Shown: piece by piece, positions 8,693-12,729 of the stretch
Numbering within the stretch: position 1 is the stretch's first letter
How the letters are laid out: the number at the start of each line of letters is the position of its first letter
Virus record (IMG/VR): IMGVR_UViG_2585427783_000004
Strand: one strand, 5' to 3'
From: a virus
Taxonomy: Duplodnaviria > Heunggongvirae > Uroviricota > Caudoviricetes
Length of the DNA stretch: 13,994 bases
Notes under the pieces: generated by a model
What the model was told of the DNA's origin: nothing
What the model saw: only the letters and a program-made list of their open reading frames with translations
The model's database searches: none
Translations under genes and position numbers: made by a program

Positions 8693-8883
8693 TTTTCACC
8701 ACCAAGAATTACCAGCTCTGCACGGGCATCGTTAACCAAAGATGAGCACGCTTTAATCGCATCCACGACATCAGCAGCGTCCATTTCTTCAGCCGAAAGA
8801 CTGACAGCAACCAGGACAGCCGCTGCTTGCTCGATTAATTGAAGTGCGGACGTAAGGCGAGGGGTATTAATTGAGTTATTCAT
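8689..8883 (-). CDS. Hypothetical small protein, 64 aa
   Basis: ATG at 8883 preceded by GGGGG about 6 nt upstream; 8-bp overlap with the upstream gene. Confidence 0.5.
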   Translation of the reverse strand: MNNSINTPRLTSALQLIEQAAAVLVAVSLSAEEMDAADVVDAIKACSSLVNDARAELVILGGEK

Positions 8884-9094
8884 TGGTTGCCCCCGTTTTT
8901 ACTGGCATTTCGCCACCTTCCAGCAGGAAATGAACGTCACGAACGGCGAGATCCAATATCGCGAGTAACGCCTTCAGTCTTTCGTCTCGTGAGGGAGAGT
9001 TGCTCACCAGAATGTCGTTAATCACTTCTGTCAGTGTGATGATCTGGCTTGTGCGTTCGAGGGGATCCATATGCACATCGTAGGTTTTAATCAT
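8876..9094 (-). CDS. Hypothetical small protein, 72 aa
   Basis: ATG at 9094 preceded by GGAGGTG at ideal spacing; the start overlaps the stop of the upstream 64-aa gene (CATGATTAA). Confidence 0.55.
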   Translation of the reverse strand: MIKTYDVHMDPLERTSQIITLTEVINDILVSNSPSRDERLKALLAILDLAVRDVHFLLEGGEMPVKTGATNE

Positions 9095-9281
9095 GTGCCA
9101 CCTCCATGCGGATACGACCAGCAAAAAAGCAGACGTGATCGCGCACCAGAGAACGGCGAGCATCGCGTTCAGACTCGGCAGCAATATGATGAATTTTGGC
9201 GGTAATTGTCGGGCAATCGCGGCGAACTGCGGCGATAATCCAGATAAATTGCGTTTTTTGGGTAGGGGTAGTAGCCAGCAT
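9087..9281 (-). CDS. Hypothetical small protein, 64 aa; first gene of the early operon that ends with the primase
   Basis: ATG at 9281 preceded by a perfect AAGGAGG 7 nt upstream. All seven Arg codons are CGC/CGT and Leu is CTG, whereas the overlapping frame of the 355-aa ORF is full of CTA/TTA/ATA/AGG/CGA here. Confidence 0.55.
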   Translation of the reverse strand: MLATTPTQKTQFIWIIAAVRRDCPTITAKIHHIAAESERDARRSLVRDHVCFFAGRIRMEVAHD

Positions 9282-9477
9282 GTGGCAGCCTCCTTCAGAT
9301 AGCAGGTTACGCTACCACCGGAAACGCCAATTTCGCTGGTGGTAGCCCAGACAGGGTTGGCGTAACCGGCTCTGAAGGATACCGGCGCTTCCGAAGAAGC
9401 CCCCGCCTGAGCCACCATTGATTGACAAAGGCGCTGGATTATACACCAACGCCCAAAAAATGGGTGAGTCAGACCTA
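9282..9477 (-). promoter_or_regulatory. Promoter plus structured 5' leader of the early operon
   Basis: Minus-strand TATAAT at 9443->9438 (no good -35). Downstream leader has a UUCG-tetraloop hairpin (GCUUC-UUCG-GAAGC, 9400->9387) and a 9-bp stem hairpin (GCUACCACC ... GGUGGUAGC, 9346->9311) before the SD at about 9290. Confidence 0.35.
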
Positions 9478-9513
9478 CGACATAAAAAAAGACGCTTGGC
9501 GCGTCATATGTCG
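9478..9513 (-). terminator. Candidate rho-independent terminator at the end of the alpA-side transcription unit
   Basis: Minus strand: stem GACGC / GCGUC (5 bp, 5-nt loop) followed by U7 (9490->9484), nested inside a larger inverted repeat CGACAT ... ATGTCG (9478-9483 / 9508-9513). Confidence 0.4.
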
Positions 9514-9943
9514 CCTTCAGAATTTTTAGGACGCCAATCCCGGCACCCGTTTTATGAGGTGCCTTATAACCATAAACCGTGTTGCCGCATAACGGCAAGC
9601 TCTTTTTTATGGACTCCGAAAACTCACTATTGGAAGAACCAGAAGCACAGTACATCGCGCTCATTTCGTTAACGTCACGCGCGTGGACGAAGGTTTTTGT
9701 GGAGTCACTACACGAGCAGAGAAAGCCATCTACGACCAGAAATTCTCTGGCATAGCCGCTGACCTTCTCAACGCTAACACCATCGACCGTAATTTCTGAC
9801 ATAGTTAAGGCATCCGCTCCTACCACCAGCAAATGATAAACTTTGCTTGTATCTGCTGTATTAATGTCTGACTTTGCTGTCATATTGCTGGATTTTGGCG
9901 ACATACCAGCCAGTGAAAATATCTTCTTCTGGGCGGTTAGCAT
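9514..9943 (-). other. Open frame with a plausible start (GGAGG + ATG at 9943) but no in-frame stop before the terminator and promoter; possible decayed gene or chance open frame
   Basis: SD GGAGG 7 nt upstream of the ATG at 9943 and protein-like composition for about 120 codons, but the frame runs through a terminator, a promoter, leader hairpins and a better-supported gene in another frame without any stop. Confidence 0.25.
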
Positions 9944-11607: not shown

Positions 11608-12078
11608 GTCTCTAGTAACCTCTCTGATAGCTCATGAAGTTACTTAAAGTTTAGTGGTTGCCCATACAGTATTTCTATTAAGACTAGAATCTATTGAAAG
11701 AAATTATAAATCTATTGAAAAAATACCGATCCACTGAAAGATTGCAAATGCAGGTGGGATAATTATTTTCTTTATTTTCAATTAGTTACCAGTTTAAAAA
11801 ATCATTGTTTTATCAAAGAGTTATATCTTTCATCGTCATTCATCATGTTTTTACATTTCTTTTTATCTTTTATTATTCAATTGGTTGAGTCGGTTTATAA
11901 TGGCTCATGATGGCTTAAAATGGCTAATGATAGCTGGCGTATCTTTTAGAGATGGGGTGATTACAGATGAACTAAGCCGAACAGATATAGCAATGGCTAG
12001 GCATAGAATTATCTATGCTGGTGGAGATGGGTAAACAGGTAATGCCCCGCCATTGCTTTGGAGGGGCGTGAAAAGTGA
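11608..12078 (-). promoter_or_regulatory. AT-rich intergenic control region upstream of alpA, carrying repeat motifs
   Basis: 470 bp with no ORF of 60 aa or more, strongly AT-rich with A/T tracts. Contains direct repeats AATCTATTGAAA (11688-11699 and 11709-11720), a 7-bp-arm palindrome GCATAGA-atta-TCTATGC (12001-12018) and the phased array at 11901-11938. Confidence 0.4.
11901..11938. repeat. Helically phased tandem 10-bp repeats TGGCTnAnnA (3 good copies plus 1 degenerate)
   Basis: tggctcatga / tggcttaaaa / tggctaatga / tagctggcgt read directly from the sequence; 10-bp periodicity places copies on one DNA face. Confidence 0.45.
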
Positions 12079-12729
12079 TTAGTCGAGATCGTGGACAGCT
12101 AATAAAGCCCGTGAGATTTTTTCTAGGAATGTGGCTTTTGCTATTCCTTTATGGGATATCCCTTCATCCTTGATTAAGGTTTCTATGTCACGGTATATAG
12201 CTGTGCGATTAGGTTTCCCATTTTGGATGTAGGAAGATGAGCCTGATTTTTTTATCAGCAGATGTACTATCAACCCCATCATTTTCATTGTCCCGTTTTC
12301 CTCATCCTGCTTTCTATGCTGCCCACGTCCGCTGCGGTTGGTTTCTTTGATGTAGTTTACTAACTGGAGTCCTCCAAGGTTTCGGGCTTTTTCTTCCCAG
12401 CCCTTGGTGCCACGCAAATCATCAATCGCTTCTGATATTTTCTGAACAATTATTTCTGGTGTATTTGTGTCAATAAATGGGTAAGAAGCTAAGAAAATAT
12501 CAAGGGCATGGCAAGGCTCATCTTTACTAGTTTTTTCACCTCTGTACACCTTGATAGCTCTGGCAAGATGAGTTCTGACAAAATCGACATATTCGAAATT
12601 TTCCTCAGGCACATCGCTAATGCGCATAGATGGGTTTAGGCCAGCCAAGGCCACAGCCATTTCATGAGGGGTAATCGATACAGATGAACAAAGCCGTTCG
12701 ATTGGCGATTTTCTCAAGATGTTGTTCAC
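12079..12729 (-). CDS. Hypothetical protein, 216 aa, translationally coupled to the integrase; AT-rich cargo gene of unknown function
   Basis: GTG start at 12729 overlapping the integrase stop (GTGA) with a strong GGAGG 5 nt upstream; TAA at 12079-12081. Visibly lower GC than neighbouring genes. No family recognised. Confidence 0.6.
   Translation of the reverse strand: MNNILRKSPIERLCSSVSITPHEMAVALAGLNPSMRISDVPEENFEYVDFVRTHLARAIKVYRGEKTSKDEPCHALDIFLASYPFIDTNTPEIIVQKISEAIDDLRGTKGWEEKARNLGGLQLVNYIKETNRSGRGQHRKQDEENGTMKMMGLIVHLLIKKSGSSSYIQNGKPNRTAIYRDIETLIKDEGISHKGIAKATFLEKISRALLAVHDLD

Follow-up and report, generated by a model that had tools for sequence, protein, structure and literature searches.

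The mechanism of immunity by a short antisense RNA was worked out for the phages P1 and P4 in the 1990s. For P1, the mechanism of C4 is reportedly due to the work of Citron and Schuster in 1990 and of Biere and co-workers in 1992. For P4, Forti and co-workers are said to have established in 1995 that the immunity factor is the CI RNA, and processing, Rho dependence and escape are reportedly described in work by Forti and co-workers of 1995, 1999 and 2002 and by Sabbattini and co-workers of 1995. The Rfam C4 family is founded on P1 and P7, in which the immI region has the order a1 b1, c4, a2 b2, icd, ant. There C4 recognises its targets, which flank it on either side, by two single-stranded elements. 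An Icd-like gene comes first downstream, with b2 lying over its ribosome-binding site, and an antirepressor is the output.

In the satellite phage P4, a constitutive promoter lies inside the eta gene, and Kil is a truncated Eta that is made from read-through transcripts (PMC10111431). Translation of full-length Eta requires the late promoter further upstream, is coupled to the alpA homologue and prevents termination (PMC10111431). In addition, seqA of P4 is needed for establishing immunity, as cited in PMC3632133, and matches to the Rfam families C4 and isrK have been noted in Gram-negative PICIs by Mageeney et al. (PMC10111431). In the Gifsy-1 prophage of Salmonella, IsrK of the isrK-orf45(STnc1160)-anrP locus ends at a leaky intrinsic terminator with read-through, and an RNA of ~80 nt, which is complementary to IsrK, is processed from the region downstream (PMC4825925). 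The downstream genes depend there on whether the first small ORF is translated, and IsrK activates the translation of orf45-anrP in trans, the output being the antirepressor and then AntQ (PMC4825925).

The locus and its relation to P4 and P1

The window, i.e., the whole stretch of 13,994 nt that was analysed, is E. coli DNA, with 100% identity to strain FORC_031 and others over the part compared, and holds an integrative element with all its genes on the minus strand. These are a tyrosine integrase (13994-12726), a 216-aa ORF, an AlpA-like HTH gene (11607-11389), a 143-aa ORF, an AntA/AntB-family gene (10945-10112), a DUF4222 gene (10206-9937), the region described here, four small ORFs, and a P4-alpha-type primase-helicase (7603-5252). 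The region ahead of the four small ORFs is very probably the immunity (early-operon control) region of a P4-like or PICI-type satellite prophage of E. coli, in other words a system of the P4/P1 type.

A BLAST search against phage records led to the P4 immunity region (X51522, 8347-8646) with ~76% DNA identity, and in the pairwise alignment the window and P4 are colinear over the promoter, the IsrK terminator, C4, the downstream hairpin, the Shine-Dalgarno sequence and the first codons. In P4, Rfam gives the same two matches as in the window, C4 at 8507-8420 (i.e., the CI RNA) and isrK at 8692-8615 (i.e., the seqA region). Judged by these alignments, the kinship with the immunity region of P4 is one of homology and goes beyond mere resemblance. 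An earlier note on this DNA had thought of RNA-based immunity or leader-RNA control of the P4 kind, and the ~76% identity to seqA-CI-seqC with the same pair of Rfam families bears this out.

P4 and the window share the C4 scaffold, the seqC hairpin, the position of b2 over the Shine-Dalgarno sequence of an Icd-like Kil gene, an ORF that spans both RNAs and a primase-helicase downstream. Their specificity is different, a' being ACGCCAA and b' CCUUCAGA in the window, UUCUCAC and CCUGUGAA in P4, with the targets changed to match. Moreover, the spacer that follows the terminator and leads to CI is ~45 nt shorter in the window than in P4, the window has TATAAT where P4 has TGTGGT, and its upstream genes are AntA/B and DUF4222, whereas P4 has vis. 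Its eta-type ORF is out of frame with kil, unlike that of P4, and carries an N-terminal extension of 120 aa. The system is already known, and the local copy is an uncharacterised one, which has a specificity pair to itself and departs from P4 in small ways, among them the shorter spacer, the TATAAT and the broken eta-kil frame.

With the immI region of P1/P7 the locus shares the general build and the Rfam C4 family, the two recognition elements with targets on both sides, and the Icd-like first gene with b2 over its ribosome-binding site. It differs from P1/P7 in its output, which would be the replication genes of the satellite instead of an antirepressor, and in that the module lies inside an eta-type ORF. 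In the P1-like phage RCS47, isrK and C4 matches stand upstream of ant. Compared with Gifsy-1, the IsrK-type RNA ends at an intrinsic terminator in both cases, while the module of the window lies in a satellite and that of Gifsy-1 in a lambdoid prophage.

The two RNAs and their pairing sites

The IsrK- or seqA-like RNA occupies 9562-9485 of the minus strand and matches the Rfam model RF01394 over its full length (model positions 1-77 of 77; 60.5 bits, gathering score 50). It consists of two 5' hairpins, a single-stranded tract and an intrinsic terminator. Hairpin 1 is under strong covariation, with double changes in 6 of its 7 pairs among 20 relatives, while hairpin 2 of the window contains one mismatch and is weak. 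Its loop displays the a1 target UUGGCGU (9537-9531), the complement of a', and the b1 target UCUGAAGG (9521-9514), the complement of b', also lies inside IsrK. As a whole, IsrK alone folds no better than shuffled sequence (z -1.0). For this upstream target RNA the applicable model is IsrK rather than c4-a1b1 (RF03163), which has no match at E <= 1 in the window and stays below its threshold in P4 (44.1 vs 46.7 bits).

The terminator of IsrK (9505-9484) is formed by the stem-loop GACGC-GCCAA-GCGUC at 9505-9491 and T7 at 9490-9484, and was picked up independently by a terminator scan. Its stem is 100% paired in 20 relatives, and the P4 copy is nearly identical. It is enclosed by the outer arms GCGACAUA/UAUGUCGU of a nested palindrome (-15.8 kcal/mol, z -2.6), which is only partly conserved, i.e., 4 core pairs are kept, 75.5% of positions are paired overall and there is little covariation. 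The earlier note had located this U7 hairpin within its nested palindrome correctly, but had read it as the end of the alpA-side operon; instead, it belongs to the IsrK/seqA-like RNA, whose predicted promoter lies further upstream, at 9598-9569. This predicted promoter has a -35 element TTGCCG (9598-9593), an 18-nt spacer and a -10 element TATGGT (9574-9569), which stands 7 nt upstream of the 5' end of IsrK and predicts a start at ~9562. It aligns with the promoter region of P4, and the motif TTG...TATAGT/TATGGT/TATAAT is kept in the alignment of the relatives. By consensus and homology, 9598-9569 is the conserved candidate promoter of the region, the putative equivalent of P_LE in P4.

The C4 or P4 CI-like antisense RNA lies at 9422-9335 of the minus strand, and its match to RF01695 is likewise full length (model positions 1-87 of 87; 79.9 bits, gathering score 45). 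A 17-bp closing stem surrounds hairpin 1, GCUUC-UUCG-GAAGC (9400-9387), and hairpin 2 (9386-9365). The MFE fold (-46.4 kcal/mol, z -4.8) is the same as the Rfam structure, the helices are 98.9-100% paired across relatives, and hairpin 1 has double changes in 4 of 5 pairs. The closing stem has a conserved CCACCA-type 3' end, a feature that may hint at excision from a longer precursor, for which RNase P cuts the 5' end in this RNA family. The ensemble of motifs is far beyond chance, with Rfam E values of 1e-14 for C4 and 3.8e-11 for IsrK and fold z scores of -4.8 and -6.1, the last being that of the 293-nt leader 9562-9270, which folds far better than shuffled sequence. The highly structured leader, the UUCG hairpin (here the first inner hairpin of C4) and the suspicion of an encoded small regulatory RNA had all been part of the earlier note and are upheld by the folding and by the two full-length covariance-model matches in Rfam; its statement that the sequence was not one to be recognised falls with the same two scores. 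The ORF 9943-8876, the predicted promoter 9598-9569 and the role of the hairpins as parts of two RNA genes had escaped it.

The b' specificity element CCUUCAGA (9378-9371) is displayed by the loop of C4 hairpin 2, and the a' element ACGCCAA (9363-9357) lies in the single-stranded junction that follows this hairpin. The exact complements of a' (7 nt) and b' (8 nt) each occur twice on the same strand, once in IsrK and once ahead of the first gene. Among the latter, the a2 target UUGGCGU (9330-9324) is displayed by the loop of the seqC-type hairpin, and the b2 target UCUGAAGG (9299-9292) overlaps the Shine-Dalgarno sequence AAGGAGG (9295-9289) of the first gene, a motif that had already been pointed out.

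To collect relatives, one genome per species was scanned with a 19-base pattern that fixes only structural parts of C4; on genome contigs it returned 56 stretches, of which 27 were true homologues after an nhmmer filter, all of them Enterobacterales loci. A looser 15-base pattern of hairpin 2 was dropped, as only 2 of the 120 stretches that it returned from viral contigs were true homologues by nhmmer. The alignment for covariation holds 27 sequences, three lambdoid phages among them. In it, the C4 fold together with the a'-a2 and b'-b2 helices is 99.0% paired, against 33-46% for slid controls. The a'-a2 helix by itself is 99.5% paired with double changes in 6 of 7 pairs, and the b'-b2 helix 97.6% with double changes in 6 of 8. 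Among 26 parsable loci there are 6 types of a', 6 types of b' and 12 combinations of them, and in nearly all of these loci both sets of targets match a' and b' at fixed offsets. This evidence is independent of the Rfam models, of which the targets are not a part. Such covariation of the elements with their targets is what one expects of an antisense RNA that owes its specificity to two short elements.

The seqC-type hairpin (9346-9311, minus strand) has a 9-bp stem with the arms GCUACCACC/GGUGGUAGC, where P4 has CUAUCGCC/GGCGAUAG. This stem (z -3.0), which the earlier note had singled out, is present and conserved as well, being 95.7% paired in 26 distinct sequences with double changes in 5 of 9 pairs, against 25-66% in slid controls. 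Its 5' arm doubles as the 3' arm of the C4 closing stem, so that only one of the two helices can exist at a time. When the leader is folded as a whole, the MFE structure has the seqC hairpin and a b'-b2 helix in cis in place of the C4 closing stem. The precursor can therefore take on a form that represses itself and recalls the inactive "structure A" described for the isrK transcript of Gifsy-1.

The Icd/Kil-like gene and the overlapping eta-type frame

The Icd/Kil-like gene (9281-9087, minus strand, 64 aa) has its ATG at 9281, behind the Shine-Dalgarno sequence covered by b2. Its product is matched by NCBIfam NF033153 ("host cell division inhibitor Icd-like protein") with 71.6 bits, the Kil protein of P4 with 76.1 bits, and PGAP gives the same name to the 64-aa product. 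Since NF033153 matches both Kil proteins, P1 (c4-icd), P4 (CI-kil) and this element share a cassette of an RNA followed by an Icd-type gene. By analogy with these systems, the antisense RNA most probably acts directly on the Kil-like gene, the one that is translated first in the early operon.

The promoter and both RNA genes are enclosed by an eta- or 'Ash'-type ORF of 355 aa (9943-8876, minus strand), whose match to Pfam PF10554 (Phage_ASH; E 6e-34) covers aa 124-232, i.e., nt 9574-9248, which are IsrK, C4 and seqC. The ATG at 9943 overlaps the 3' end of the DUF4222 gene (stop at 9937), which is compatible with translational coupling. The ORF continues from the upstream gene chain on the alpA side, and the region is not intergenic. 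It had been taken for a spacer between two operons, whereas it is embedded in an ORF, as is the case in P4 (PMC10111431).

In P4 itself, the ORF 8812-8168 extends across seqA, CI and seqC and has Kil as its in-frame end, which makes the nested pair eta/kil. No stop interrupts the eta-type frame in any of the 18 core relatives, while nearly all other frames have 1-9 stops, and indels of +18 and +45 nt are in frame. The interpretation of PF10554 as a purely spurious translation of RNA genes was rejected on these grounds and on that of its correspondence to P4 eta. In the versions of Rahnella, Serratia silvae and Arsenophonus, the RNAs are kept and the open frame is lost.

The frame continues in frame into Kil in 16 of the 18 core relatives, P4 and Raoultella among these. 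In the window, Kil is not the in-frame C-terminal part of Eta. A 2-nt indel where kil starts (CACATGCTGGCT vs CAC--CATGGCT in Raoultella) puts the 355-aa ORF into a different frame from kil, and the ORF therefore extends to 8876. The out-of-frame state is common to other E. coli carriers, on which PGAP is inconsistent, annotating either a whole 355-aa "ash family protein" or a pseudogene together with an Icd-like gene.

Proposed circuit, alternative readings and specificity

The model builds on the homology, both RNA folds, the co-varying complementarity of three sites, the position of b2 over part of the Shine-Dalgarno sequence and the open frame, all of which can be read directly from the sequence. 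Transcription would start at ~9562 from the constitutive promoter 9598-9569 inside the eta/Ash-type ORF. The first 78 nt would make up the IsrK/seqA-like RNA, with a1 and b1, which would end at the intrinsic terminator. Read-through transcripts would hold the C4/CI-like RNA (9422-9335), which, as in the related systems, would be cut out and accumulate. Its b' in the loop of hairpin 2 and its a' in the junction would then pair with a2 and b2 on further transcripts, and the translation of the Icd/Kil-like gene would be blocked, because b2 covers its Shine-Dalgarno sequence. The untranslated RNA would be terminated early, as in P4 and P1, and the downstream genes, including the primase-helicase (7603-5252), would be off. 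C4 should also be able to pair with a1 and b1 in IsrK. By analogy, transcripts that come from the gene chain on the alpA side would evade this control, since ribosomes would translate the eta-type ORF across the module. We infer the processing of the RNA, Rho-dependent termination and the escape via translation from P4, P1 and Gifsy-1; the transcription start, the processing sites and the termination of this element are likewise predicted.

The P4 model may not transfer in full, since the in-frame link between eta and kil is broken by the 2-nt indel. The IsrK-like RNA may be either a helper of repression, as in P4, or an activator, as in Gifsy-1, where IsrK activates rather than represses. The locus could thus be a positive switch of the Gifsy-1 type, in which the long read-through form is silent and the short IsrK-like RNA, with a1 and b1, acts in trans as an anti-antisense RNA or decoy that frees the ribosome-binding site of kil, so that the main outcome is activation and not immunity. 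We consider this unlikely, though still the most serious of the alternatives. It would agree with the activation of orf45-anrP translation in trans by IsrK of Gifsy-1 (PMC4825925), with a1 and b1 being exact copies of a2 and b2 and so able to compete for C4, and with the full-length MFE fold, in which b' pairs with b2 in cis and the seqC hairpin replaces the C4 closing stem. The closest homologue by sequence, however, is P4, and there seqA is needed for establishing immunity, as far as the citation in PMC3632133 goes; moreover, the two roles are not mutually exclusive, and the positive switch would be an added layer more than an alternative to repression.

The layout proposed in the earlier note is improbable: the U7 hairpin would end the alpA-side operon, the perfect TATAAT at 9443-9438 would be the early promoter, and a cis-acting leader would start at ~9431. 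The hexamer is present between the IsrK terminator and C4 on the minus strand, it sits ~9 nt upstream of the 5' end of C4, and the closest relative, Raoultella, retains it as ATATAAT. It is not significant on its own, because TATAAT occurs 3 times per strand in the window vs ~4 expected; neither a -35 nor an extended -10 element is recognisable at it by eye, it is not among the calls of the promoter scan, and it is absent from P4 and from all aligned relatives but Raoultella. The terminator, for its part, belongs to a full-length IsrK match with a conserved upstream promoter of its own, and the upstream ORF chain crosses the region in an open frame. As the main promoter, the hexamer was rejected, being neither conserved nor statistically unusual; it may be a lineage-specific secondary promoter, a second entry point of transcription, although nothing requires it. 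Another explanation would be that the region is just protein-coding, for an 'Ash family protein' or 'transcriptional repressor', and that the hairpins are incidental, to which we give next to no credence. The PF10554 match (E 6e-34), the repressor or regulator labels of PHROG 6928 and related families and the open frame of the core relatives would speak for it, yet selection on a protein does not predict compensatory double changes in the helices and between sites ~30-160 nt apart, nor the closed frame of the Rahnella, S. silvae and Arsenophonus versions in which the RNAs are kept. Translation of the frame is in any case compatible with the RNA model, and part of it. The name Phage_ASH can be traced to a 137-aa ORF of P4, which is the "cI gene product" in X51522 and the "put. 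ash gene" in X02534. It is apparently this old 'cI/ash' annotation of P4 that gave rise to the 'repressor' label, and a repressor function of the Phage_ASH ORF remains unsupported.

The preferred reading, a repression system of the P4/P1 type, introduces no new principle, and the occurrence of such systems in PICI-type satellites is already on record. Its consequence for annotation is that the same DNA, which public records label inconsistently as "ash family protein", pseudogene or "transcriptional repressor", is very probably the RNA immunity switch of a satellite prophage. The specificity of immunity is modular in this family, resting on two short elements, each of which is mirrored at two target sites, and such modularity predicts which satellites and phages are hetero-immune and which are cross-reactive.

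In this respect the lambdoid isrK-C4 modules are instructive, i.e., those of SfV (orf37, 'immunity region'), of the Stx2a phage LC567842 and of PhiR47_1 ('Rha'). They have the same a-type as the window (a' ACGCCAA, a1 AUUGGCGU), a very similar 5' half of IsrK and the same start of the first gene, SD-ATG-'MAT...'. Their b-types, CCGAUAAC, CCUUGAUC and CCGUAUGC, differ from that of the window, and each matches its own b1 and b2. The sequence of the C4 closing stem is also different, the loop of hairpin 1 is GAAA, and only 24 nt lie between the terminator and C4. Within the P4-like set, the a-type of the window is common only to Raoultella. Since the a-type is lambdoid, the b-types are different and no identical pair occurs in the phage records searched, the module of the window looks mosaic, which fits a modular exchange of specificity elements.

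It is conceivable, though very improbable, that the a and b elements form a combinatorial RNA 'address code' across satellites and full phages, in which the C4 of the satellite, or that of a co-resident lambdoid phage, might partly cross-regulate the other element, since the satellite pairs a lambdoid a-type (SfV, Stx-converting) with a b-type that is common in P4-like satellites. If this were true, the cross-regulated operon would be an icd/antirepressor or a replication operon, which would give an RNA-level channel for sensing the helper or interfering with it, and the P4 circuit would have been rewired further by the lineage-specific TATAAT and by the loss of the link between eta and kil. 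The exact a'+b' segment of the window has no counterpart in the phage records searched, where the best hit is 86.5% over 37 nt; in the 5,426 complete E. coli genomes it occurs in 168 (~3%), always as a single and chromosomal copy.

Protein labels and reading frames over the RNA genes

The RNA genes of the immunity module, that is, IsrK and C4 together with the downstream hairpin seqC, coincide exactly with a match to the Pfam family PF10554 (Phage_ASH) at 9248-9574 on the minus strand, and PHROG 6928 and related families, described as "transcriptional repressor/regulator", likewise coincide exactly with the same three elements (9248-9574, minus strand). The repressor/regulator label seems to derive from the obsolete annotation of a "cI/ash" ORF in P4 rather than from protein data. 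The eta/"Ash"-type ORF (8876-9943, minus strand) and the Icd/Kil-like gene (9087-9281, minus strand) occupy different reading frames in this lineage of E. coli, owing to a 2-nt indel where kil starts; in P4, Raoultella and most relatives, the eta-type ORF is in frame with Kil. PGAP calls for identical architecture (see L183, L184 and L185) differ, giving either an intact 355-aa "ash family protein" without an Icd gene, or a pseudogene plus an Icd-like gene.

The module in distant bacteria and lambdoid phages

IsrK and C4 are kept in Rahnella (loci L157, L137, L142, L153, L152, L127 and L132), Serratia silvae (L158) and Arsenophonus (L148), and matched targets are present in all of these distant versions except that of Arsenophonus. 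The stop-free frame across the RNAs is absent from every one of them, and therefore the eta-type dual coding is not universal. In Rahnella, another gene, beginning "MNDT..." or "MKDK...", stands first downstream. Cassettes consisting of isrK, C4, a Shine-Dalgarno sequence and a gene beginning "MAT..." are also found in an Stx2a-converting phage, SfV and PhiR47_1 (loci L179, L180 and L182, each at 1203-1455), where they lie downstream or upstream of neither but in the interval from cro/ymfL to replication gene O, and the genes enclosing them are annotated as "immunity region", "Rha" or "hypothetical". These three phages share exactly the a-type of the window, and their b-types are all different.

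Mismatched and probably misplaced loci

In Mangrovibacter yixingensis (L176, about 1300-1655, at the end of a contig), the IsrK part has a1 GUAGGAA and b1 CUCAAUGG, while C4 has a' UUUCCAC and b' CCGUUAGA; that is to say, C4 is mismatched to its own a1/b1 and matched to a2/b2. This locus has the appearance of a recombinant whose a1/b1 set belongs to another specificity type. Over the immunity region, the contig titled "MAG: Clostridiales bacterium" (L140) is near-identical to P4, although its a-type is another one. Enterobacterial contamination or wrong binning is the most likely origin of this contig, rather than a Clostridiales element.

Flanks and the IS66 end

The closest relative, in Raoultella (L128), is flanked by a tRNA and has the int-alpA RNA (RF02996) in the interval from int to alpA (612-685 and 2143-2210); the window, where this interval is 11608-12726, gave neither hit. 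Its int is followed by a 216-aa ORF (12729-12079, minus strand), and in the carrier strain FORC_031 the element adjoins yicC. At the other end, three IS66-type ORFs of 141, 116 and 537 aa (2417-1, minus strand) are preceded by a 286-aa ORF (3348-2488, minus strand), whose match to a DNA-ejection family ("released from the phage upon infection") covers only positions 1-275 of a 509-position profile. This late gene was probably truncated by the IS insertion; the equivalent place in FORC_031 holds a 1344-nt version.
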